DNA of 64,000 bases, from the NCBI GenBank assembly GCA_012799365.1, contig JAAZLJ010000087.1:393-64392 (forward strand), written 5' to 3'. The first letter of the stretch is position 1. Every line of letters begins with the position of its first letter. The DNA comes from Syntrophomonadaceae bacterium. GTDB lineage: Bacteria; Bacillota; Syntrophomonadia; Syntrophomonadales; Syntrophothermaceae. The notes under the pieces were generated by a model. That model was not told the DNA's origin. It was given only the letters and a program-made list of their open reading frames with translations, and made no database searches. The position numbers and the translations under genes were made by a program. Of the stretch, positions 4,106 to 64,000 are shown piece by piece.

Positions 4106-4125
4106 CGTTATCTGCGGTTTCAAAA
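4106..4125 (-). repeat. Repeat module A core (ATCTGCGGTTTCAA), reverse orientation
   Basis: Exact reverse complement of TTGAAACCGCAGAT at 4110-4123, directly after the activase stop. Confidence 0.8.
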
Positions 4126-10615: not shown

Positions 10616-11602
10616 GTGAAGGGTACGGTAATGAGCGGCATGAGGCCGACGGGAAAACTGCATATCGGGCATTTGAGTGTCCTGGAGAACTGGGTCAGGC
10701 TGCAGGAAGACCACCGGTGTTTTTTTATCATCGTCAACTGGCATGCCCTGACTACCGCTTTTGATGAGACTGAAATCATAGTTGAAAATATACAGGATAT
10801 GGCACTGGACTGGCTCAGTGCTGGCCTGGATCCAGCCAAGAGTACCATCTGTGTTCAGTCGCAAGTTAAAGAACATGCTGAACTGCACCTGCTGCTGTCC
10901 ATGATCACGCCGCTGCCGTGGCTGGAGAGGTGTCCGACCTACAAGGAGCAGGTTCAGGAACTGGGTAAAGCGGGTAAGGATATTTCTACCTATGGTTTTC
11001 TGGGTTACCCTATGCTCATGGCGGCGGATATCCTGGTCTACAAGGCGGATACCATACCAGTAGGCCGTGATCAGCTGCCCCACCTGGAGTTTGCCCGGGA
11101 GGTGGCTCGCCGATTTAATTATCTATATGATAAGAACGTGTTTCCCGAGCCCCAGGCGCTGCTTTCTAACGTTCCCGTGGTTCCCGGTATCGATGGGCGT
11201 AAGATGAGCAAAAGCTATAATAACTATATATCCCTGTCCGAGTCTACCGAGGAGCTTAAAAAGAAGACCAAAATGATGATTACGGATCCGGCTCGCATCA
11301 GGAAGGATGATCTCGGGCATCCCGAGGTCTGTACAGTGTTCGTCTATCAGGGATTGTTTAACCCGGAGGAAGTTGATGAGATCGAACAGAAATGCCGCCA
11401 GGGTGCTATCGGGTGTGTAGCCTGCAAAGCCCGGTTGGCCGAGTGCCTGGATGACGTTTTGGGGCCCATTCGGGAGAAAAGGGAGGAACTGGCCCGCCGA
11501 CCGGATGATATTCGAGATATGTTGGAAGATGGCGCCCGGAAGGCCCGTGCGGCAGCCTCTGCTATTATGGAGGAAGTGCGGGAGGTTATGAATCTCTGCT
11601 AG
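10616..11602 (+). CDS. trpS: Tryptophan--tRNA ligase
   Basis: GKLHIGH (HIGH) and KMSKS motifs; GTG start after GAGGAG. Confidence 0.92.
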   Translation: MKGTVMSGMRPTGKLHIGHLSVLENWVRLQEDHRCFFIIVNWHALTTAFDETEIIVENIQDMALDWLSAGLDPAKSTICVQSQVKEHAELHLLLSMITPLPWLERCPTYKEQVQELGKAGKDISTYGFLGYPMLMAADILVYKADTIPVGRDQLPHLEFAREVARRFNYLYDKNVFPEPQALLSNVPVVPGIDGRKMSKSYNNYISLSESTEELKKKTKMMITDPARIRKDDLGHPEVCTVFVYQGLFNPEEVDEIEQKCRQGAIGCVACKARLAECLDDVLGPIREKREELARRPDDIRDMLEDGARKARAAASAIMEEVREVMNLC

Positions 11603-11606
11603 AAAA

Positions 11607-11950
11607 ATTGAAACCGCAGATGAATGCTGATGGACGCAGATAACTCTGATAATTATGAATAATTAGACGCAGATTAACGCTGATTATTATGATTTACGCG
11701 GATTTCTTTTAAATTATTTTTGACGCTGAGAACGCAGATGGGCGTAGATTTAATAAAAAATAAAAATATACACTGAAAGATGTGGAAATATCAATCCGGA
11801 GAGTATTAACCGAGTCGAGCGACTTACGAAGCCAACGATGTTTTGGCGAGTGCCGGCGGAATCGAAGGCGGAGCCTGAGCGCTGGTCGCAGGCGACGTCG
11901 CAGTACACACGCAGCTCCCGGGCTCGCGAAGCGGAGCGAGGAACAGAGGG
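11607..11950 (+). repeat. Mosaic intergenic repeat: module A (phased GAT array) plus module D (reverse orientation)
   Basis: TTGAAACCGCAGAT at 11608. GAT recurs every 9-10 bp from 11619 to 11701. 11795-11900 is the reverse complement of the 724-813 / 55905-56000 module. Confidence 0.9.
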
Positions 11951-13920: not shown

Positions 13921-14150
13921 GATTGAAACCGCAGATACACTCTGATGTACTGCAGTCGACGAGTCCGGGAGCGAGCGGGTTAACCACATTCCGTAAATAT
14001 GTAGTTTTCATGTCCCTGATGGTGATACCTCCGGTATCATGGAGGTCTGCTATGAATTTGAAACCGCAGATTAACGCAGATAATACTAAAAATATACATT
14101 AAAGATGCGGCAATCTGCAAGGAGAGTCTTAACCGAGTCAGGGAGAAAGT
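13921..14150 (+). repeat. Mosaic intergenic repeat (A-B-C-A modules) in the 3' region of the DUF1992 gene
   Basis: TTGAAACCGCAGAT at 13923-13936 and 14058-14071 flanks the B+C modules. Hairpin TGATACC-TCC-GGTATCA at 14023-14039. Confidence 0.9.
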
Positions 14151-16659: not shown

Positions 16660-16685
16660 CTGGTAGTGAGGTGACGGGAAATATT

Positions 16686-16915
16686 TGGAACCGCAGATAT
16701 ACGCAGATGCACGCAGATTAACCACGAAATGGACGTAGAATACACAGAAAACTTATGAAAATAACTTTTATAGGGAATGCGGTAAACCGGGTGGAATAAC
16801 CTACGAAGGCGGTGGTAGTGCAACAGCAAAGCCGAGAGCGGTGAAGCGGAGCGAGCCGGTTAATACTCTTCGAATAATATGCTGTTTTCAGACCGACATG
16901 AGGGTCTACACTCAG
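16686..16915 (+). repeat. Mosaic intergenic repeat (module A array plus degenerate B/C modules)
   Basis: Three exact CGCAGAT at 16692, 16702 and 16712. GCGGAGCGAGCCGGTTAATACTC and GCTGTTTTCAG match other copies. Confidence 0.85.
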
Positions 16916-19295: not shown

Positions 19296-19498
19296 ACCCC
19301 TACTTGAAAATAACTTTGAAACCGTAGATGCAAGCTGATGGACGCAGACAACGCTAAATATTATGAAAACGCTGAATGAATAGTTAGATGCTGATGTACT
19401 GCAGTCGACGAGCCGGGAAGCGAACGGGTTATCACACTCCGATAAACATGCTGTTTTCATGCCCCTGATGGTGATAGCTTCGCTACCATGGACGAATG
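19296..19498 (+). repeat. Mosaic intergenic repeat (A-B-C modules)
   Basis: TTGAAACCGTAGAT at 19316; CTGATGTACTGCAGTCGACGAGCCGGGAAGCGAACGGGTTATCACAC; hairpin TGATAGC-TTC-GCTACCA at 19472-19488. Confidence 0.9.
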
Positions 19499-20682: not shown

Positions 20683-20885
20683 TTTTGTAACCGCAGATGA
20701 TACTACTTTAAATTAGACGCAGATGGACGCTGATTATTATGATTCACGCTGATTTCTTAATTACTTTTAACACTGAAAACGCAGGGGAAGCAATAACACG
20801 GAATATTACCAAACGCTGAAAAAACAAGATAACCCCCCCACCGGGTCTTAACCAATCTGCGTTAATCAGCTTCTAATAACTTATT
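20683..20885 (+). repeat. Mosaic intergenic repeat (module A array; inverted A fragment at the distal end)
   Basis: TTGTAACCGCAGAT at 20685. 20711-20760 matches 11661-11710 at 44 of 50 positions. CCAATCTGCGTTAATCAGC near 20860. Confidence 0.9.
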
Positions 20886-21098: not shown

Positions 21099-21169
21099 TC
21101 TGCATCCCCCTTTATTTTGCTCTACATTATCTCCCTGCTCGAAACCTCCTGTTTCTCGCTCCCTTTCAC

Positions 21170-21252
21170 CGCCTCCGGCTTCGCCTTTAATTCCGCTAAT
21201 ATTTGCCGAAACATCGTCGGCTTCGTAAGTCGCTTCGCCGGGTTAACACATA
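21170..21252 (+). repeat. Repeat module D copy
   Basis: TTGCCGAAACATCGTCGGCTTCGTAAGTCGCTTCGCCGGGTTAACACA matches the 55971-56030 copy. Confidence 0.85.
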
Positions 21253-26540: not shown

Positions 26541-26572
26541 TTTGAAACCGCAGATGAATGCTGATGGACGGA
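26541..26572 (+). repeat. Repeat module A copy in the divergent promoter region
   Basis: 26542-26570 is identical over 29 nt to 11608-11636. Confidence 0.9.
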
Positions 26573-26632: not shown

Positions 26633-27322
26633 ATGAGACCGATTCTACGAAAAATTACCGATGGAGTACCCCTGAAGGCGGGGGAATATGAACGTTTGCT
26701 GGCATACATCGAAGAATTGCGCCAGGTGGGTGGGGATTCTTACCGGGTTTTTCGGGAAAATTATGGTACCAAGCTAGGACGGGATTATGGCTTTTATCTG
26801 AGCCGCTATTCCGCCGGGGGTGCGGATCTGGTGGAATACCTGGCCGCCAACCCATCGGTGGTGAGAGCGATGCAGGAAGAACCGGTACCGGTGGCTAGTT
26901 TTCCTCCCTGGTTGCGGGATTATCTCCTGAACGAATACGGGCTATACCTGAAGGCAGGTCAGATCGGTGACCTCCTGAGTTGGCTGCGGCGGGAGCGGAT
27001 TACGGCGGTCGGCCTGCCTCGGGGACGGGAAGGCGAGGCAGTGCTGGTGTATGAAGAGGGTAATCCCTATAAGGAAACCGGGTTAAAACAGCATTTTGAA
27101 AATATTGCCCGCCGTAGCTTTGTGACCCGGGTGGTAAGTATACGCTACCTGACCAGGAATAAGGCGCGGGCTGATGGCTTTAAGGTTCGAGGTGATGACT
27201 GCTTATCAGGCATTTTTACCAATCGGGAAAAATCGATTTACTACCTGGTCTATTTGACCGAGGCTGATGCCGGTAAAGCGGAAAATGCGTGCAAGCTGCT
27301 GAATCAAGTTTTTTACGGGTAA
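26633..27322 (+). CDS. Hypothetical protein, gene 1 of the Hsp70-associated operon
   Basis: 229 aa; ATG after GGGAGAAG. Long ORF with coding-like composition. No motif I recognise. Confidence 0.7.
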   Translation: MRPILRKITDGVPLKAGEYERLLAYIEELRQVGGDSYRVFRENYGTKLGRDYGFYLSRYSAGGADLVEYLAANPSVVRAMQEEPVPVASFPPWLRDYLLNEYGLYLKAGQIGDLLSWLRRERITAVGLPRGREGEAVLVYEEGNPYKETGLKQHFENIARRSFVTRVVSIRYLTRNKARADGFKVRGDDCLSGIFTNREKSIYYLVYLTEADAGKAENACKLLNQVFYG

Positions 27323-27398
27323 TTCGTTAGTCAAGTATGGAGGTTAAATAATAGTTTTTGCAGTGGGATCAACTAATAAATAATTGGGGTGAAGGCTG

Positions 27399-28871
27399 AT
27401 GTCGTCCGGTATTGCCGGGATTATTGAGAAACTTAATAAGAGCAGTGGAAAAGATATTTTCTTATATTGGGAAGGGGAAATTCAGGCCCGGAAACAGGTG
27501 CGAGAAGCCAGAACCTGGGAAGAACTGAGCGGAATCGAGCCGGAGCGGGAAACCATCGACTTTTTATTTCGCGCTTTTTTCCCTACCGCCCGGCGCAACT
27601 GGTTCTATCGTTATCTGCTGATAAATTCCCATACCATGCCGGTGATTCGCTGGTTGATGTCCTGCCCTCGGGGAATCAAGATGGATTTTCTGACCCGGTT
27701 ACCGCTGCTGCTGCAGGCGATGCCCGGGCAAAATCTGGATTTCCTGATAAATATCTATACCAGTTCTTTACAGGAGGTTTATCGCCGCATTTTGTTGGGT
27801 TTGAATCAGGAAACGGTTTCTCATCTGATGGGACGAACTGCGAACCCGGAGCTGCGGCGGCTGTTGCGTGAACGGCGGGAGCAGCTGCAGGCAGAACGTC
27901 AAAAGGCTCATATGGGTCTGGACCTGGAGGCTATTCGAGTTCCCGGGTGGGAGAGTTTCTATGGTAATAAGGTGGAATTAGGGCAGGAGGTTCTGGCTGT
28001 TTTGCAGGAGGCCAGGGTAGATAATTTCGCCCATCCGTACAGCGGTGAACGCTTGACGGTTTTGGTGCGAGCGGTGGAAGCCCTGTATTGCCTGGGCTGG
28101 GTACAGGACAGCCTGGTACTCCTGGTGGAAACCTACCAGGATTTCATGGCCCGCAGCCGCCTGCCGGATCCAGCGACCGCGCAGGCCTTGTACCGTGACC
28201 TGGATGGGATGGCCCGAATGCTGATCCCCATCTACTGTTTGTTGGAATATCCTACCGAACCGGGGAGACGAGCCCGGGAAATATATCGATGGTCTTTACC
28301 CCAGCTTATGTACGAGGAAGCTTCGGTGGCCTATCTGGATTTTCTGGTGGGGCTGCCGCGGGTGGGTTCTACGGGTGTTTTACACCTGCAGGCGGAGGTA
28401 AGGGGTTTCTGTGAACTGGTGGGCCACTCACGAATAGATGATGAATTTATTCGTATCCTGCAGGCGGAGGAGCTGGACAGTTCTGATTTATCAAGGTTGG
28501 CAGCAATAGCCCGCGAAAGGCTTAAGTCCCGGCCCCATGAGACTTTTGTTATCCTGGAATTGGTTCGGGGCCTGGTGGCTAAAGGCCGGGTGGAAGTCGG
28601 ACCCGGGTGGAGTGAGGAATTGTTCCAGACTTATCTGGAACTGTGGCACTGGATTCCTTCCCGGATATTTCTCAACCAGATTTTGTTGGACAGCCTGACT
28701 CCCGGGCTGGGTGTTGAGTGGCGGCGGCAGGTATCCCAGGTGCGGGAGTGGTTAAGTCGAGAGCCAAACCAGATATTAGAATTCTACCGTGATAAGCCGG
28801 ATCTGGCCAGAACTCAAGGCAGCCTGGTGGCTCTGGAAACGGTGTTTGGTAAACTACTGGGGGTACAATAA
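27399..28871 (+). CDS. Hypothetical helical protein, gene 2 of the Hsp70-associated operon
   Basis: 490 aa; ATG after GGGGTGAAGG. Its stop overlaps the next start (TAATG). No P-loop or HPD motif. Confidence 0.75.
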   Translation: MSSGIAGIIEKLNKSSGKDIFLYWEGEIQARKQVREARTWEELSGIEPERETIDFLFRAFFPTARRNWFYRYLLINSHTMPVIRWLMSCPRGIKMDFLTRLPLLLQAMPGQNLDFLINIYTSSLQEVYRRILLGLNQETVSHLMGRTANPELRRLLRERREQLQAERQKAHMGLDLEAIRVPGWESFYGNKVELGQEVLAVLQEARVDNFAHPYSGERLTVLVRAVEALYCLGWVQDSLVLLVETYQDFMARSRLPDPATAQALYRDLDGMARMLIPIYCLLEYPTEPGRRAREIYRWSLPQLMYEEASVAYLDFLVGLPRVGSTGVLHLQAEVRGFCELVGHSRIDDEFIRILQAEELDSSDLSRLAAIARERLKSRPHETFVILELVRGLVAKGRVEVGPGWSEELFQTYLELWHWIPSRIFLNQILLDSLTPGLGVEWRRQVSQVREWLSREPNQILEFYRDKPDLARTQGSLVALETVFGKLLGVQ

Positions 28872-30523
28872 TGGATGATAAATCACTGTCACAATTAAAT
28901 GAGCATTATGAGCAGATGCTGGAAGCTTTCCTGAAGGAAATTCAGCGGGAATGTGAACGGCAGGCAGTCGAGTTTGGTTACTCTGATCTGACACCGGAAG
29001 GTAGCATTATACCGACCGAGGTGTGGGAAGATTACCTGCATGAGGTTAATTCTTTCTATTATCGTAGTTTTCACCAGGGATTTTTTCCAGCTTACCGGGA
29101 TACGGTTAAAGCGGAAACGGCGGAGATCTACCAGGTCAGTCGGCAGGTGGATACCCTGCGGGAAGAAATAGCCAATAATCTTATCCGCTATGCTCAATTA
29201 TACAACCGCCTGAAGCATTTAATTCAGGTTCTGAGGGGACTGGTGGGAGAGGTTGAAGAACGGCAGGTGGAGTTGGAGCAGTCGCGTGAAGGGGTGTATC
29301 ACTTCCTTTACCAGTCGCTGGTGGAACTGCAGGAAGCGGTGGGGGAATTGCAGGGGTGGTACAGCAGTCTGGAGAAGCTGTGGGCCGAGCCGCATTGTCT
29401 GGAACTGGTCGCACGGTATGTAGAGTTACAGCTCTTGCTGCGTGATAGGGAAGTAGACGAGTCCCCGGATTTGGATACCGGACATCGGGATGCGGTGGGA
29501 CGTTGGTTGGCTGTTATGGCAAATAGTGCGGAGGCTTTGCAGGTTTTAGCGCAGGAAGCGGATGCCATGTTACCGGAGGAAGTGGGTAAAAGCTGGCAGG
29601 CCATAGCTAACGACCTGTTCCGTGTACCGGTGGGAGTACCGGGTTTTGTGGAGGATTTTATCCACTACGGGTTGGTACCCAGACTGCAGGCAGAGGTAGC
29701 ATTGGTAGGATTACGCTTAAAATTAAGGATGTTAGATTCAGACCAGGCTTTGGTAGAAGATGATGAGGAAGGTTTTCTAGAAGTCAGAGATTATGTGGCT
29801 TCTATCCAGCCTGTATTGGAACGTATCCTGGCTTTAAGACGCGACTTGCGGTGCCGGGAGCTGATGGCTCAGCCTGGTTATGTCGAACCGGCGGATATGG
29901 AGAAAATTCAGAGTATGTCCCGGCTGCTGCGCGAATTTGAGTGTGAATTAGGAAATGGGGCAGAAAAGCTGCGCCAGGGCAGGGATTTGAATCCACGAGA
30001 ACTGGAGCAGGTCGCTGAAGCTGCGGTCTTTCGGTTTGAAAAGGAGCTAACTCGACGGATGGGGCGGGCAGAGTTTAAAGTCCCCATGCGATTACAGTTA
30101 GAAAACGAAGGGTTCCGGGGGCGGCTGTCTTTGTTTGCGGTAAAGTTCTGGTATTACCGGGAGCAGTTGGAGCACAGTCTGCAGGAGATAGATCGATACC
30201 GGCATCTAACCGATTTGCTGCGCCGACACGGGGAGATTTTTGATGTTCTTCAGGATGATCTCGAGCTGTTGTTATCTCCACGCAGTCTGCGCCGGGCCTG
30301 GGGAGACCTTACGGTGGAAGTGAATCGGTATCCGCTGATACGGGGAGAGCAGCTGCCGTCGGAATGTGTTCACTTGTTGGAGGAAGGTCGTATCGAACGT
30401 AGACTGGTACCGGAGAAGGAATACCTGACGGTGTTGGAGGAAAAAGGTGATCTGTTTCGGGTGGAGGTAGATGGGCTGGTTCGGTGGGAGATACCTCATC
30501 TGGTGGTAGGAATGAAGGAGTAG
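28871..30523 (+). CDS. Hypothetical coiled-coil-like protein, gene 3 of the Hsp70-associated operon
   Basis: 550 aa, rich in E, L, R and Q. Start overlaps the gene 2 stop. Its stop TAG abuts the gene 4 GTG. Confidence 0.75.
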   Translation: MDDKSLSQLNEHYEQMLEAFLKEIQRECERQAVEFGYSDLTPEGSIIPTEVWEDYLHEVNSFYYRSFHQGFFPAYRDTVKAETAEIYQVSRQVDTLREEIANNLIRYAQLYNRLKHLIQVLRGLVGEVEERQVELEQSREGVYHFLYQSLVELQEAVGELQGWYSSLEKLWAEPHCLELVARYVELQLLLRDREVDESPDLDTGHRDAVGRWLAVMANSAEALQVLAQEADAMLPEEVGKSWQAIANDLFRVPVGVPGFVEDFIHYGLVPRLQAEVALVGLRLKLRMLDSDQALVEDDEEGFLEVRDYVASIQPVLERILALRRDLRCRELMAQPGYVEPADMEKIQSMSRLLREFECELGNGAEKLRQGRDLNPRELEQVAEAAVFRFEKELTRRMGRAEFKVPMRLQLENEGFRGRLSLFAVKFWYYREQLEHSLQEIDRYRHLTDLLRRHGEIFDVLQDDLELLLSPRSLRRAWGDLTVEVNRYPLIRGEQLPSECVHLLEEGRIERRLVPEKEYLTVLEEKGDLFRVEVDGLVRWEIPHLVVGMKE

Positions 30524-32281
30524 GTGATAGGTGTGCACCTGGGTATTGATCTGGGTACCAGCAGTATTAAAATGGGTATGATCGACCGGCAAGGTCGCTT
30601 TATAAATTTATTGGGAGCGGGAAGGATGATTCCTACAGTGGCGGTTTATGTACCCCGCACCGATCGGTTGTATTTTGGGTCAGAGGCTGTGGGCCTGCGC
30701 GAGCCGGGGATGGAAGCAGGGAAGTTCTTCAAGGTGGAGATCAAGCGCAACCCGGGTTACCATCTGGGACCATTTAATTTAACCGAGATTATAACGCAGT
30801 TGCTAAAATGGCTTTACCAGCAGTATGTGGCGAAAAAGGCAGAACCCGTGCAGACGGTTAACATCGGGATACCGAACTATTTTGGGTTAAAAGCGCGCCA
30901 GGTGGTATTGGCGGCGGCCCACACCGTTTTTTCTGGGGTTCCCATCCGGTTGGTGCCGGAGCCTCTGGCGGCTCTGGTAGGGTTGTTACGGGAGTGGGTG
31001 GTAGGGGACCAGGCTTCCTTGATGGGTAACCTGATGGTGGTGGATATTGGCGGTGGTACGGCTGATGTTAGTTTTGTTCATCTGAGCCGGTCGGAGGGAA
31101 CCCGGGCCATTCTGGAGGCTCATTTGCAGAGTGGCAGCGACGTTTTCAGTGGAGCCGAGGTAGATAAGGCTGTTCTGAGGCAGGTGTTGATACCGCGGTT
31201 TGAGTTGGAGACCGGGCAGCGTATTGCCTCCCATCTGAAAAAGGAAAAGGGTATACAGGGTGGGGAGGGGTACCGGTACGCCAGGATGTTGAGCCGGGCG
31301 GAAGAGATTAAAATTGGTTTGGCTGAAAAAGATGAGATACGGGTTGATATACCCGATTTCTATCGAGGCAGGTCGTTGAATACTGTTTTGATGCAGGAAG
31401 ATATGAGACCAGCCCTGGACAGCACGCTGCGTACCCTCAGGCAGTTTATAAAAAGTGAGGTTAGAGACCGTGCCCGGCAGGCGGGTCTCTATAACCGGGG
31501 TTGCTGGCAGTTTGACCAGGTGGTTTTGATGGGAGGTGCTTCCCGGTTGCCGGGCGTAAGGGAGGTGTTGGCGGAATTGGGAGTGAAGATACTGCAGCCC
31601 CGGGAACCCGAGTTTTATGTGGTCCGGGGATTGAGTGCTCTGGTTGGTTCCAGTGACGGTCCGGGTGGTCTGGAGATGAGAGTCATTTTCCCATTCCGTT
31701 TCTATATTGAGAAGCGGAAAACTGGGAAGTTTGATTCCCGTGTCCTGGAAGCTATTTCTTTCGATACCGCGAACCTGGAGCTGGATCCGGACGGAATCTA
31801 CCGCTTATTTTCGGTTCCTTTTGATTCTGCCTACAATCTGGGCCGGGAGGATGAACGGTTCGAAATCAGGGTGTATCAGGGCGAAGAGGGTGGAGAAGAA
31901 GCGGTTGATAGGATCAGAATTGACAATGAATCTCTGGTATTGGACTTTTCTGCCCGTCGGGAAGATATAGAAGGTGAGATGGTAGATATCTACCTGGACC
32001 TGGGGGCTTCCTGCCTGCGTACCAGCCGGGAGAAGGAAGCCGAACAGCCGGGGAAAGTGGAGAGGGATGGTAAGCGCTTATGGCAGGAGGCGCTTGGCCG
32101 TCAGGAGTCAACTACGGCTGCAGCCCGGTATCTGCAGGGGCAAGGTGCCCACCCGGCGCTCAATAATTTTGCCGAACGTCTGCAGGTTTTAAAAGAGGGT
32201 TCCCCCTATCAGAATTACGATGATTTTATGGTGGCCAAACTGCTGGCTTTCTTTGAGGTTCTGACCCATGAAAAGAAGTAG
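30524..32281 (+). CDS. Divergent Hsp70 family ATPase (non-DnaK paralog)
   Basis: GIDLGTSSIKMG, EPLAALVG, VVDIGGGTADVS and LMGGASRLPGV. C-terminal FEIRVYQGEEG...DIYLDLGASCLRTS resembles a degenerate SBD-beta. GTG at 30524 or 30533 after GAAGGAG. Confidence 0.85.
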   Translation: MIGVHLGIDLGTSSIKMGMIDRQGRFINLLGAGRMIPTVAVYVPRTDRLYFGSEAVGLREPGMEAGKFFKVEIKRNPGYHLGPFNLTEIITQLLKWLYQQYVAKKAEPVQTVNIGIPNYFGLKARQVVLAAAHTVFSGVPIRLVPEPLAALVGLLREWVVGDQASLMGNLMVVDIGGGTADVSFVHLSRSEGTRAILEAHLQSGSDVFSGAEVDKAVLRQVLIPRFELETGQRIASHLKKEKGIQGGEGYRYARMLSRAEEIKIGLAEKDEIRVDIPDFYRGRSLNTVLMQEDMRPALDSTLRTLRQFIKSEVRDRARQAGLYNRGCWQFDQVVLMGGASRLPGVREVLAELGVKILQPREPEFYVVRGLSALVGSSDGPGGLEMRVIFPFRFYIEKRKTGKFDSRVLEAISFDTANLELDPDGIYRLFSVPFDSAYNLGREDERFEIRVYQGEEGGEEAVDRIRIDNESLVLDFSARREDIEGEMVDIYLDLGASCLRTSREKEAEQPGKVERDGKRLWQEALGRQESTTAAARYLQGQGAHPALNNFAERLQVLKEGSPYQNYDDFMVAKLLAFFEVLTHEKK

Positions 32282-32395: not shown

Positions 32396-32432
32396 GTATG
32401 TTGCGTCTAATGGCTCATCTGCGGTTTCAATT
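32396..32432 (-). repeat. Repeat module A copy, reverse orientation, overlapping the rhomboid stop codon
   Basis: ATCTGCGGTTTCAA at 32417-32430, preceded by TTGCGTCTAATGGCTC. Confidence 0.85.
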
Positions 32433-35339: not shown

Positions 35340-35458
35340 GATAGTCTTAGCAGACGTCCATGATACCGTAGGTATCACCATCAGAGAATGAAAACAGCAC
35401 GGTTATGGAGTGTGGTTAACCCGCTCGCTCCCGGACTTGTCGACTGCAGTATATGATA
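35340..35458 (-). repeat. Mosaic intergenic repeat (C-B modules, reverse orientation)
   Basis: Hairpin TGATACC-GTA-GGTATCA at 35361-35377; GGTTAACCCGCTCGCTCCCGGACTTGTCGACTGCAGTAT. Confidence 0.9.
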
Positions 35459-46478: not shown

Positions 46479-47660
46479 ATGCTAGAATACCTGGTATTTG
46501 CCTTTCTGGTTTTCGTACCGGTGGCTGGTCTTGGCTTTTACATATTAACTAAAAAAGGAATCAAACGGGAAACCATTTGGATAGGGATACTTACAGCTCT
46601 GGTTTTATTGGTCTTCTTTCCTCCGCTGACAGCCTGGTTGGGAATGTGGGGGGCGGCAGGTTTTGTACTTTTAATCATGGTCGGGGCAGGCGTTTTAATA
46701 AGTCGTTGGTGGGTAAGGACTGAACCGGGAGACCTGGTTGAAACAGCCCTGGTGGTCGACGAGGAGCCGCCAGCAGATGACGCCGCAGTCATATCAGGAG
46801 AAGAAGCATCGGCGGCCGCGGCGGCAGATGAAGCAGCGGAAATAGAGGATACAGATGATGTGCGGTTGGGAGCGGAGGCAGAAGAACCGGCGGAAGAGGT
46901 CTTGAAAGCAGAGGAAGCCGCAGGTTTGGCGGCGGATGAGGATATAATTTCTAACGAACTCGTGGTTGAAACAGCCCTGGTGGTCGATGAGGAGCCGCCA
47001 GCAGATGACGCCGCAGTCATATCAGGAGAAGAAGCGCCGGCGGCCGCGGCGGCAGATGAAGCAGCGGAAATAGAGGATACAGATGATGTGCGGTTGGGAG
47101 CGGAGACAGAAGAACCGGCGGAAGAGGTCTTGAAAGCAGAGGAAGCCGCAGGTTTGGCGGCGGATGAGGATATAATTTCTGACGAACTCGTGGTTGAAAC
47201 AGCCCTGGTGGTCGACGAGGAGCTGCCAGCAGGTGACGCCGCAGTCATATCAGGAGAAGAAGCATCGGCGGCCGCGGCGGCAGATGACATAAACATACTC
47301 ATAGAAAGAGGTTTTGCGGCGAAATTCGGCGAAAACTATGAAGAGGCGGCCCGGCAGTTCAGTCAAGTGTGGCAGCGGATTGACACTCCTGGCTTTTTCT
47401 TCATGGTTGGTATGGAACTGGTCAGCTTGTACAGCCGGTTGGGCTCCTATGATAAGGCCCTGGAGGTGCTGGATAGGCTGGGTGGCGATAGCCGTTTAAG
47501 CCCCACTGAGGTTGATAAAGTTGCTCGGGAGAGGGAGCTTCTCCAGATAACTCAGAGACTATTACAGGAGATTGGTATGCCGGATCTGCCAGCAGCCAAC
47601 GTCCCCCGACTTATTCGATTAAAAGCTGGGCAGGAGTTGGAAGAGCACAGAAATAACTGA
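46479..47660 (+). CDS. Membrane protein with acidic 76-aa tandem repeats and a helical (TPR-like) C-terminal domain
   Basis: ATG at 46479 after GGGGAGGGGAG (track start 46404). Three N-terminal TM helices, then a repeated ETALVVDEEPPADDAAVISGEE... block. Confidence 0.7.
   Translation: MLEYLVFAFLVFVPVAGLGFYILTKKGIKRETIWIGILTALVLLVFFPPLTAWLGMWGAAGFVLLIMVGAGVLISRWWVRTEPGDLVETALVVDEEPPADDAAVISGEEASAAAAADEAAEIEDTDDVRLGAEAEEPAEEVLKAEEAAGLAADEDIISNELVVETALVVDEEPPADDAAVISGEEAPAAAAADEAAEIEDTDDVRLGAETEEPAEEVLKAEEAAGLAADEDIISDELVVETALVVDEELPAGDAAVISGEEASAAAAADDINILIERGFAAKFGENYEEAARQFSQVWQRIDTPGFFFMVGMELVSLYSRLGSYDKALEVLDRLGGDSRLSPTEVDKVARERELLQITQRLLQEIGMPDLPAANVPRLIRLKAGQELEEHRNN
46737..47287 (+). 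repeat. In-frame tandem repeat, 228-bp unit, about 2.4 copies
   Basis: GTTGAAACAGCCCTGGTGGTCGA starts at 46737, 46965 and 47193. Only a handful of substitutions between copies. Confidence 0.95.
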
Positions 47661-53020: not shown

Positions 53021-53041
53021 GCCAAAGGGACGGTTCTTGTG
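53021..53041 (+). repeat. 21-bp direct repeat, left copy (GCCAAAGGGACGGTTCTTGTG)
   Basis: Perfect match to 53796-53816. Lies 4 nt downstream of a TATAAT hexamer (53011-53016). Confidence 0.95.
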
Positions 53042-53108
53042 ACTTCTGTTAATTAGTGGCGTGCAATTTATGGAAATATTCGGTATAATAAATGCAAGTG
53101 GGGGTGTC

Positions 53109-53504
53109 ATGTTGGATACTAACGAGAAACTAAAATATTGGCTTGAATTAGCCGAGTATGATTTGGAGACGGCTAAAGTGATGCTTGACGGCGGAAGGCA
53201 CTTATATGTTGGCTTTATGTGCCATCAAGTAATTGAAAAAGCCTTAAAGGGGTATTATGTTTCAGTTCTCGCAGATGATCCACCATTTACTCACAACCTC
53301 ACTATATTAGCGAGAAAATCAGGGGTACTTGGAACGCTTTCTGATGAACATAAAGACACTATTGACCTACTTGAGCCACTAAATGTAGAAGCAAGATATC
53401 CTACCGCCAAGGACAAACTATTGAAAGCACTAACCGGGCAAAGATGTATTTCGGTATTGAAAAGGACGGAGGCGTTATTCACATGGATAAAAGCCAGGCT
53501 ATAG
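53109..53504 (+). CDS. HEPN domain protein
   Basis: ATG at 53109 after GGGGGTG. Helical pattern ...AEYDLETAKVML...CHQVIEKALKGY...EARYP typical of HEPN partners of minimal nucleotidyltransferases. Confidence 0.65.
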   Translation: MLDTNEKLKYWLELAEYDLETAKVMLDGGRHLYVGFMCHQVIEKALKGYYVSVLADDPPFTHNLTILARKSGVLGTLSDEHKDTIDLLEPLNVEARYPTAKDKLLKALTGQRCISVLKRTEALFTWIKARL

Positions 53505-53791
53505 AAAAAGCAATAGAGTATTCGAAACTGGTTAATGAAAGAATCAAGGTTCAAAAAATATTGCTATATGGGTCTTATGCTAAAGACAATTGGAACGAAG
53601 AAAGTGACATAGATATTGCCGTAATAGTTGATACGGTGGATGGCGATTTTTTGGACATGGCGTCTATGCTGTATCGGTTGAGAAGACATGTAGATGACAG
53701 AATTGAACCTGTGCTGCTGGAACAAAAAGCGGATCCAAGTGGTTTCCTAAGTGAAATCTTGAAGCATAGCGAAGTAATTTACACAAACTAG
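53483..53791 (+). CDS. Minimal nucleotidyltransferase (MNT) domain protein
   Basis: LYGSYAKDNWNEESDIDIAV (GS...DxD). ATG at 53483 after GGAGG; overlaps HEPN by 22 nt. Confidence 0.78.
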   Translation: MDKSQAIEKAIEYSKLVNERIKVQKILLYGSYAKDNWNEESDIDIAVIVDTVDGDFLDMASMLYRLRRHVDDRIEPVLLEQKADPSGFLSEILKHSEVIYTN

Positions 53792-53795
53792 ACCT

Positions 53796-53816
53796 GCCAA
53801 AGGGACGGTTCTTGTG
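53796..53816 (+). repeat. 21-bp direct repeat, right copy
   Basis: Perfect match to 53021-53041; starts 5 nt after the MNT stop. Confidence 0.95.
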
Positions 53817-55868: not shown

Positions 55869-56062
55869 CAGATGTCCATAATACCGGAGGTATCACAGCC
55901 CTCAGCTTTGCTGTGTACTGCGACGTCACTTGCGGCCGGCGCTCAGGCTTCGCCTTCGATACGCCCGGCACTTGCCGAAACATCGTCGGCTTCGTAGGTC
56001 GCTTCGCCGGGTTACCACACTCCCGTATAGAGTTATTTTTATAGCAGCGGTTATAAGCCGCC
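55868..56062. repeat. Mosaic intergenic repeat (C fragment reverse, then module D forward)
   Basis: Hairpin TAATACC-GGA-GGTATCA at 55878-55894. GGCCGGCGCTCAGGCTTCGCCTTCGATACGCCCGGCACTTGCCGAAACATCGTCGGCTTCGTA. Confidence 0.9.
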
Positions 56063-56094
56063 TGGCCGGGTTAACACATTCTTGATAAGATTGA

Positions 56095-60961: not shown

Positions 60962-61170
60962 TTCTTCATAGCAGACCACTATGATACCGAAGGTATCACC
61001 ATCAGGGACATGAAACTACATATTTATGGAGTGTGGTTAACCCGCTTATTCCCCGATAAGTCCGGGGACGGTCCCCGGACTTATTTAGCACACTCCCCGT
61101 AAGAGTTATTTTATATTTTTAGTATTATCTGCGTGCATCAGCGTTTATCTGCGGTTTCAGGGTTATTTTC
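60962..61170 (-). repeat. Mosaic intergenic repeat (C-B-A modules, reverse orientation)
   Basis: Hairpin TGATACC-GAA-GGTATCA at 60982-60998; GGTTAACCCGC; ATCTGCGGTTTCAG at 61147-61160. Confidence 0.9.
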
Positions 61171-63794: not shown

Positions 63795-64000
63795 CCGCAT
63801 TTACTGCGTATAGCTGCAGTTTCATTTCAGAATAGGACCTGACTAACCTGAAATAACTCAGGAAACTTTCAGGTTTAAATATGTTTGGCATTTTCAGCGT
63901 ATTCATAAGTTTTCAGTGTATTCTGCGTCAATCCGCGTATCTGCGGTTTCAAACGTTTTTATAGCAGACCTCCATGACCAGCAGAGAATGAAAACAGCAC
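63795..64000 (-). repeat. Mosaic intergenic repeat (A and C modules, reverse orientation; truncated by the window end)
   Basis: ATCTGCGGTTTCAA at 63939-63952. ...GCAGACCTCCATGACCAGCAGAGAATGAAAACAGCAC matches 35351-35400. Confidence 0.85.

Follow-up and report, generated by a model that had tools for sequence, protein, structure and literature searches.

Several kinds of dispersed repeat resemble, in one respect or another, the element that we describe here. The parent transposons of MITEs carry several subterminal binding sites at each end, as at the ends of Mu and Tn7. The BOX repeats of pneumococci and the BIMEs of enterobacteria are mosaic repeats, and both are restricted to their lineages. 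The STRR sequences of heterocystous cyanobacteria are composed of 7-nt tandem units, and we know of no gene partner that has been assigned to them. In Drosophila, the foldback (FB) elements have inverted repeats built from 10-bp-derived units, although these elements are eukaryotic and far larger. Last, PD-(D/E)XK homing endonucleases (e.g., I-Ssp6803I) are encoded by small selfish nuclease genes that reside in non-coding host sequence and spread horizontally.

The repeat considered here, module A, occurs throughout the genome of a Syntrophomonadaceae bacterium (2.24 Mb in 267 contigs, 49% G+C, 91.6% complete). It was noticed in a 64,000-nt stretch of one contig (C4:393-64392), which we refer to as the window. 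Module A begins with a 14-nt head, TTGAAACCGCAGAT, which is the most frequent 14-mer of the whole assembly. Allowing at most one mismatch, there are 252 copies genome-wide, 143 of them exact, and 11 in the window compared with 0.01 expected from window shuffles. As we argue below, module A is best explained as the terminal repeat arm, here mostly solo and without the gene, of a small GxxExxY-nuclease cassette that passes from phylum to phylum, a reading to which we assign a probability of roughly 0.62. Such a cassette with module A ends seems to be undescribed; literature searches with sequence strings and with words found nothing on these arms. The copies of module A in the window, together with the other modules of the spacer in which it was recognized, are as follows.

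4110-4123, minus strand: A head only.
11595-11607, plus strand: K-like leader TCTGCTAGAAAAA, which contains the trpS stop codon TAG (11600-11602).
11608-11641, plus strand: module A arm, made up of the head TTGAAACCGCAGAT, GAATGCTGAT and GGACGCAGAT; BLAST depth about 160 copies.
11642-11650, plus strand: degenerate fourth unit of 9 nt, AACTCTGAT.
11661-11750, plus strand: module J, a second, AT-rich array with cores at 11667, 11677, 11696, 11732 and 11742; there is a copy at 20711-20760.
11797-11946, plus strand: truncated GC-rich T-D-E-F' module; depth at least 40 copies, dropping to 1 at 11947.
13923-13946, plus strand: A head and one unit, joined at GCTGATG to I-t-H (the short form A-I-t-H).
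14058-14081, plus strand: A head and one unit, directly after the H-K end of the preceding copy.
16685-16718, plus strand: full A arm, TTGGAACCGCAGAT, ATACGCAGAT, GCACGCAGAT.
19316-19349, plus strand: full A arm, slightly diverged, TTGAAACCGTAGAT, GCAAGCTGAT, GGACGCAGAC; in the same spacer of the related genome G054 the arm is reversed.
20685-20698, plus strand: A head only, followed by the J copy at 20711-20760.
26542-26570, plus strand: A head and about 1.5 units, identical to 11608-11636.
32417-32430, minus strand: A head only, facing the copy at 26542.
61127-61160, minus strand: full A arm, CTGAAACCGCAGAT, AAACGCTGAT, GCACGCAGAT.
63921-63952, minus strand: A head and irregular units.

All 11 places and strands that an initial annotation of the window had given for the 14-mer (with zero or one mismatch) are correct. 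The same is true of the GAT trinucleotides that it had counted (starts at 11619, 11629, 11639, 11648, 11672, 11682, 11691, 11701, 11737 and 11747, and again at 20722, 20732, 20741 and 20751), of the exact CGCAGAT copies at 16692, 16702 and 16712, and of the similarities between copies (29 of 29 positions for 11608-11636 and 26542-26570, and 44 of 50 for 11661-11710 and 20711-20760). The trpS-scpA spacer (~11590-11946) consists entirely of repeat DNA, and from the A head at 11608 onward the copy number exceeds 20 everywhere. Its T-D-E-F' module is the left part of an element with inverted ends (see below) and stops 16 nt before the scpA start codon. The facing A heads at 26542 (plus strand) and 32417 (minus strand) bracket a four-gene orphan Hsp70 operon (26633-32281), which may be due to chance, given one arm per ~9 kb. 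Elsewhere in the window, a coding region contains near-identical 228-bp tandem repeats (46735-47287; 97-98% identity), and the direct repeats of a HEPN/MNT cassette (53021-53816), considered as a possible relative, proved to be unrelated.

The initial annotation had described the phasing as roughly one helical turn. Counted genome-wide, same-strand pairs of GCWGAT number 282 at exactly 10 bp and 99 at exactly 20 bp, compared with ~2-14 at each other distance (except for shoulders adjoining the two peaks). Phasing is therefore a property of the whole genome, but the repeat unit is an exact 10-bp tandem, NNACGCWGAT, rather than a loose helical repeat of ~10.5 bp. Module A itself is a fixed 34-bp arm comprising the head and up to two NNACGCWGAT units; the array starting at the head has one unit in 89 of the 252 copies, two in 74, three in 88, and four in a single copy. 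Because the number of units is fixed, we regard module A as a defined 34-bp arm with truncated versions and not as a variable minisatellite. Replication slippage producing a functionless minisatellite, which the short tandem unit might bring to mind, is contradicted by this fixed architecture of no more than three units, by the same 14-nt head across phyla and by the specific association with one gene family, and can be set aside. The left boundary of the module is sharp, at TTGAAACC, often with the K motif (G)TCTGCTATGAAAAT directly before it. In the three-unit arm, the central bases of the units read A-T-A (CCGCAGAT, ACGCTGAT, ACGCAGAT), a pattern found in 74 three-unit arms.

Arms are located mainly in the spacers between genes and, as had been reported for the window, in both orientations (53 are co-oriented with both flanking genes and 62 opposed to both). 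Copies are cut off at variable points, and several reading frames terminate within repeat DNA. In the window, the neighbours of the arms are housekeeping genes, and from its spore-germination genes the organism is recognizable as a spore-forming Firmicute. No terminator-like site was found in the repeat, and its AT-rich part gave only weak promoter-like matches. About 6% of the arms in this genome have inverted units within 200 nt; the remaining ~94% have no inverted partner.

Module A is one part of a longer composite whose modules follow the constant order K, A, J, T-D-E-F-G-(X)-I-t, H, K. K has the consensus GTCTGCTATGAAAAT and is found both in front of many A heads and at the end of the H hairpin module. 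J, which is rich in AT, contains additional ACGCWGAW units, and the GC-rich element T-D-E-F-G-(X)-I-t has the inverted ends GGAGTGTGGTAACCC. H is the hairpin GGTGATACC-TCCG-GGTATCA. Many forms with internal deletions exist. The short form A-I-t-H has an identical junction, at a shared GCTGATG, at 15 unrelated loci, and it follows that the composite, in which A forms the left end, has been copied as a unit. The right end of what is propagated is the H hairpin, which is unrelated to module A.

The other modules have features of their own. H is present in ~118 copies (in the window at 14001-14057, 35349-35456 and 60981-61056); it lies inside a longer imperfect palindrome, and the K motif that stands before module A also serves as its right arm. 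The GC-rich element (GGAGTGTGGTAACCC...GGGTTAACCACACTCC, ~260-430 nt, ~50 copies) occurs in the window at 11797-11946, 21130-21250 and 55881-56078, and a full copy is found, for example, at L009 (G000:C40:6000-6905). In its centre are two hairpins with GGA loops, and the element gives a sub-threshold match to TwoAYGGAY (34.7 bits compared with a gathering score of 43). It comprises two subfamilies with compensatory differences at five base pairs, which points to structural constraint. We found no multi-copy transposase in this genome; apparent multi-copy "proteins" all turned out to be spurious frames of the GC-rich repeat. A partial match to the c-di-AMP riboswitch, below threshold (L010, positions 1-123, in G000:C200; 25.8 bits compared with 38), is cut by the contig end.

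The repeats also bear on how this genome was assembled. In public contigs that represent this species in other anaerobic-digester samples, the spacer is either intact, at the same 360 nt, or cut off ~90 nt into the repeat; several digester metagenomes (L185-L191) yield short-read contigs that stop ~90 nt past trpS, within the repeat. Much of the fragmentation of this genome, which is in 267 contigs, is probably due to the repeats.

Beyond this genome, the pattern TTGAAACCGCAGATNNACGCWGAT, scanned in one genome per species, matches at least 103 DNA stretches from ~12 phyla, archaea included (phyla were assigned by record title). Among the matches listed, the holders include Planctomycetota, Pseudomonadota (alpha, beta, gamma and "Muproteobacteria"), Acidobacteriota, Verrucomicrobiota, Nitrospirota, Chloroflexota, Sumerlaeota, Binatia, Stahlbacteria, one Syntrophomonadaceae MAG, Cyanobacteriota (including isolates of Microcoleus, Nostoc and Scytonema) and, from the archaea, two Methanoperedens MAGs. 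There are 4-80 arm copies per holder genome. Phages, plasmids and viral contigs gave zero, three and two matches, respectively, and this near-absence rules out a phage or plasmid feature. Within the phylum, a 20-base arm pattern that occurs 90 times in this genome was absent from all of 300 other genomes (drawn evenly, 222 genera). Comparison with relatives, which the initial annotation had proposed, showed background motif numbers in the close ones, the exception being G054 (also G003), from another genus of the same family, with 16 arms. Three of six spacers syntenic between G054 and this genome are occupied in both. The gerAB-gerAC spacer has an arm in each, but it is inverted and accompanied by other modules, which suggests turnover rather than conservation.

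The arms lead to a particular gene family. PF13366 (TIGR04256, GxxExxY) genes are present in eight of nine arm-holding genomes, and this genome has two, which score 140-149 bits in NCBIfam compared with a cut-off of 35; no PF13366 gene was found in G054. The family is listed as of unknown function, with multiple transfers between Bacteria and Archaea (Steczkiewicz et al. 2012; PMC3424549). Of 17 full-length PF13366 genes, nearly all are flanked on both sides, at distances of no more than 220 nt, by inverted tandem-unit repeats. With a strict C[GA]C-type unit pattern, eight of the 17 have the repeats on both sides and 12 on at least one side. The same strict pattern was absent from 20 control loci of Y1 transposases and almost absent from 30 PF05635 loci.

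Exact A-type arms bracket the gene in six lineages (L198, L200, L199, L194, L033 and L055). In a member of the Terriglobia (L198), the element is ~430 bp long and consists of TTGGAACCGCAGAT-GAACGCAGAT-GAACGCAGAT, the gene, and an exact inverted arm; the 5' arm is in frame with the gene and is read as MEPQMNADERR. The gene lies between A-type arms in Methanoperedens (L200) and Microcoleus (L199) as well, and in G046 (L203) an A-type foldback directly adjoins it. In the genome studied here, one of the two genes (L194, on contig C191) has the arm TTGTAACCGCAGAT-GAACGCTGAT-TAACGCAGAT, with the genome-specific A-T-A cores, ~40 nt upstream of its start codon, and a small A-type foldback after its stop codon. 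The dispersed arms of the genome thus share their A-T-A signature with the gene-bearing copy. The second gene, on C168, has J-type arrays on both sides. Among loci gathered by the arm pattern alone, tblastn recovered two more genes, from a member of the Binatia (L033) and a gammaproteobacterium (L055), and both lie exactly between facing arm heads. Two relatives from the same taxonomic order likewise have bracketed GxxExxY genes, with CACAGAT and CGCGGAC units.

Variation in the proteins parallels that in the arms. On average, two of the 17 proteins are 57% identical if they share an arm type and 43% if they do not (permutation p<0.0002); the overall gene sample is small (17 + 2 + 2), and arm types were assigned by eye. 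Grouping the same proteins by host genome shows no such clustering (47% compared with 45%, p=0.22). The five proteins associated with CGCAGAT units, from a Firmicute, an acidobacterium, a cyanobacterium, an archaeon and an unclassified bacterium, are 50-68% identical to one another, and four of them form one clade with the second GxxExxY protein of this genome. The D...E-x-K pattern of the PD-(D/E)XK fold appears to be kept in these proteins (e.g., VDLLVENKVILEIK in the C191 protein), judging from their sequences; a sequence search returned no solved structure.

In other phyla, the usual form is two facing arms separated by a loop of 7-180 nt (typically ~30 nt), which gives a foldback of ~100 bp in total with very strong folding (z-scores of -11 and -12). 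The statement in the initial annotation that module A is not a REP hairpin is correct for this genome, in which the arm has fold z-scores of +0.5 to -1.7 on both strands relative to shuffled sequence, but these palindromic relatives, and the role of the arms as terminal repeats around a small nuclease gene, had been missed. In 29 of 40 registered foldbacks, each arm consists of the head and exactly two units. Across the 40, mirrored units have the same bases in their variable spacer dinucleotides at 57% of positions, compared with 55±3% for shuffled partners, and the arm-to-arm differences (85 transitions, 64 transversions) have no wobble (G·U) or direction bias. Because the arms do not co-vary, what is conserved is the sequence of each unit and not base pairing. 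This speaks against a role as RNA or cruciform and suggests that each core, 8 nt long and repeated at 10-bp spacing, is read by its sequence, most simply by a protein. In some foldbacks the arms belong to two unit families and so are not complementary: a CACAGAT arm faces a CACGAAG arm in a Sumerlaeota genome (L030, 3700-3900), and a CGCAGAT arm faces a CGCAAAG arm in Methanoperedens (L027). The flanks of the foldbacks contain further arrays of related units (e.g., ACGCAGAG, CACAGAG, CACGAAA), and module J of the present genome resembles these. No direct repeats of the kind expected from target-site duplication were found around 74 foldbacks.

Taken together, we envisage the following. The complete element would be ~430 bp long and consist of an arm, a gene for a GxxExxY protein of ~115 aa with a PD-(D/E)XK nuclease fold, and an inverted arm, where each arm is the head TTGAAACCGCAGAT plus two 10-bp units, each with the 8-nt core ACGCNGAT. 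Most copies everywhere would be gene-less. In other phyla these would be the ~100-bp foldbacks, and in this genome mostly solo arms that open the K-A-J-T..t-H mosaic and have been copied with it, as a unit, into ~250 spacers. The nuclease may bind the three phased cores of an arm on one face of the helix and cut at or near the heads, and could in this way either mobilize its own cassette, and gene-less copies in trans, or home into them. The earlier idea of a short motif presented to a protein on one face of the DNA would then survive in a changed form, with the element's own nuclease as the likely reader. Some observations fit less well. Most copies here are one-armed and the composite ends in the unrelated H, so that a simple two-ended model does not explain the multiplication of solo arms; no target duplication was seen; G054 has arms but no PF13366 gene; and the arm that it shares with this genome in the gerAB-gerAC spacer is inverted and has other modules.

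The explanation that comes closest to this one turns the relationship between gene and arms around, so that the gene could be a lodger in the foldback loop and not the engine. The foldback or arm would be an independent repeat spread by host functions, the GxxExxY gene a homing-type lodger, and the arms its landing site rather than transposon ends. Most of its predictions are common to the two explanations, and co-clustering of proteins with arms is to be expected under homing too. Gene-bearing copies are rare (2 for 252 arms in this genome, and 2-3 per ~108 arms in the cross-phylum sample), and G054 retains arms without the gene. A second orphan family, PF05635 (TIGR02436, 23S-IVS protein), sits likewise between other tandem-unit repeats. 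On the other hand, we know of no host function that would keep a 34-nt sequence near-identical from Firmicutes to archaea, and the 5' arm of L198, lying within the reading frame (MEPQMNADERR...), suggests a tight unit. We consider it unlikely that the gene is a lodger. As a candidate partner of module A, PF05635 was discarded, being absent from this genome and, elsewhere, without C[GA]C-type units. The inverted tandem-unit repeats around PF05635 genes (L153-L176) are of other types, which include G-rich heptamers (e.g., GGGAATA) as well as GGAGATGA, TGCTAAAT and others, and suggest a second gene family with the same end architecture.

It is also conceivable, but distinctly improbable, that the arms are binding sites of a host protein (nucleoid, partition or regulatory) that spread by selection for function. 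Exact 10-bp spacing, and cores that are conserved without co-variation between the arms, would suit such sites well, as would the three of six syntenic spacers that are occupied both here and in G054. Sites of this kind are difficult to reconcile with the lack of preference for an orientation or a class of gene, the variable truncation points, the inverted gerAB-gerAC arm with its different modules, and the absence of the pattern from all 300 same-phylum genomes. Nor is there a recurrent partner gene near the arms: all-against-all BLAST of the at least 103 arm loci found no recurrent neighbour at the threshold used. The genes enclosed by distant arm pairs (recJ and others) are ordinary genes. 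The initial annotation had proposed either a cooperative protein array, iteron-like or nucleoid-protein-like, or intrinsically bent DNA. The conservation of each unit without arm co-variation fits the protein-binding part of the first idea, but the iteron or nucleoid-protein role is not supported, given that the 252 copies are dispersed, that there is no rep or par gene nearby, and that the fixed three-unit arm behaves as the end of a dispersed element.

A REP/REPIN-type element, moved as single-stranded hairpins by a RAYT (Y1/HUH) transposase, is largely refuted and now very improbable. The long hairpins of the foreign relatives (z-scores of -11 and -12) and the Y1 genes in most holder genomes did recommend it. 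However, neither this genome nor G043 has a Y1 gene (PF01797, RAYT/IS200, had no match in this 91.6% complete assembly), and none of 20 Y1 loci elsewhere is flanked by arrays. Furthermore, the arms lack the GTAG or CGTC tag that defines REPs (PMC3733652) and do not co-vary, and the arm of the present genome does not fold. TnpB (PF07282), also considered as a partner, had no match in this genome either.

We give equally little credence to the idea that the spacers are transcribed into an RNA motif that is structured or acts as a protein sponge. It is true that AUGGAC is found in some units and also in the loops of the GC-rich element nearby, which has the sub-threshold TwoAYGGAY match. But the orientation of the arms is random relative to genes, their differences have no compensatory or G·U bias, and units from other phyla do not conserve GGA. 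Module A had no match to an Rfam family, whether in the window, in full-length copies or in foreign foldbacks, the last giving only generic hairpin (miRNA-type) noise.

Returning to module A as the arm of a nuclease cassette, a broader proposal can be made, which we put forward as tentative and would not yet back at even odds. GxxExxY cassettes may represent an unrecognized cross-domain class of minimal mobile element, in which a nuclease gene lies between two three-core arms and each clade of the nuclease reads its own core (CGCAGAT, CACAGAG, CGCCAAG, CACGAAT and others). Tandem-unit foldbacks would be their gene-less offspring, and this genome would be the most extreme expansion among the genomes compared, in the form of a derived, one-armed mosaic. 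The interest of the cassette reading is, in part, that it offers a concrete and testable role for a widespread orphan family (PF13366/TIGR04256), and a possible explanation for the tandem-unit foldbacks that fill the spacers of many environmental bacteria and some archaea. If the nuclease does read three short cores per arm, which vary between clades, it would constitute a very small system of sequence-specific DNA recognition, and also a new end structure for a mobile element. There is a practical side as well: these repeats fragment short-read assemblies, supply stop codons and give rise to spurious reading frames.

How, then, does the element compare with the described systems? Like iterons and partition-centromere arrays, module A is phased, but its 252 copies are dispersed, and their neighbours are housekeeping genes, none of them recurrent. 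It shares with STRR and FB elements the construction of arms or arrays from short tandem units, although its unit is exactly 10 nt and not the heptanucleotide of STRR. The ordered mosaic of short modules with many deletion variants (K-A-J-T..t-H) recalls BOX and BIME, yet the modules are unrelated to these in sequence, and module A is common to many phyla. REP/REPIN sequences with their RAYTs are likewise high-copy, extragenic and often palindromic, with an enzyme gene in single or low copy flanked by repeats (Bertels and Rainey 2011, PMC3116915; Di Nocera et al. 2013, PMC3733652). They differ from the present system, which has no GTAG/CGTC tag, no Y1 gene in this genome, tandem-unit arms that do not co-vary, and conservation across phyla. 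Like the genes for nucleases of the I-Ssp6803I type, the GxxExxY gene is small, apparently selfish, horizontally spread and set in non-coding sequence, but the host sequence here is a multi-copy repeat and not an intron in a conserved gene. The genes for 23S-IVS proteins (PF05635/TIGR02436) are also small orphan genes with inverted tandem-unit repeats, in the same genomes, but the protein fold and the types of unit differ, and this genome has none.

The likeness to MITEs and their parent transposons extends over several features: inverted ends made of repeated short sites, many gene-less and few gene-bearing copies, and an intergenic location. The terminal inverted repeats that characterize MITEs are seen in the foreign foldbacks and are absent from ~94% of the copies in this genome. 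Unlike in MITEs, no target duplication accompanies the 74 foldbacks, and the sites are 8-nt cores at exactly 10 bp. The sole gene encodes a PD-(D/E)XK-fold protein of ~115 aa and not a DDE, HUH, or serine/tyrosine enzyme. As for MITEs, a gene-bearing relative with the same ends is present (L198, L200, L199, L194, L033 and L055).
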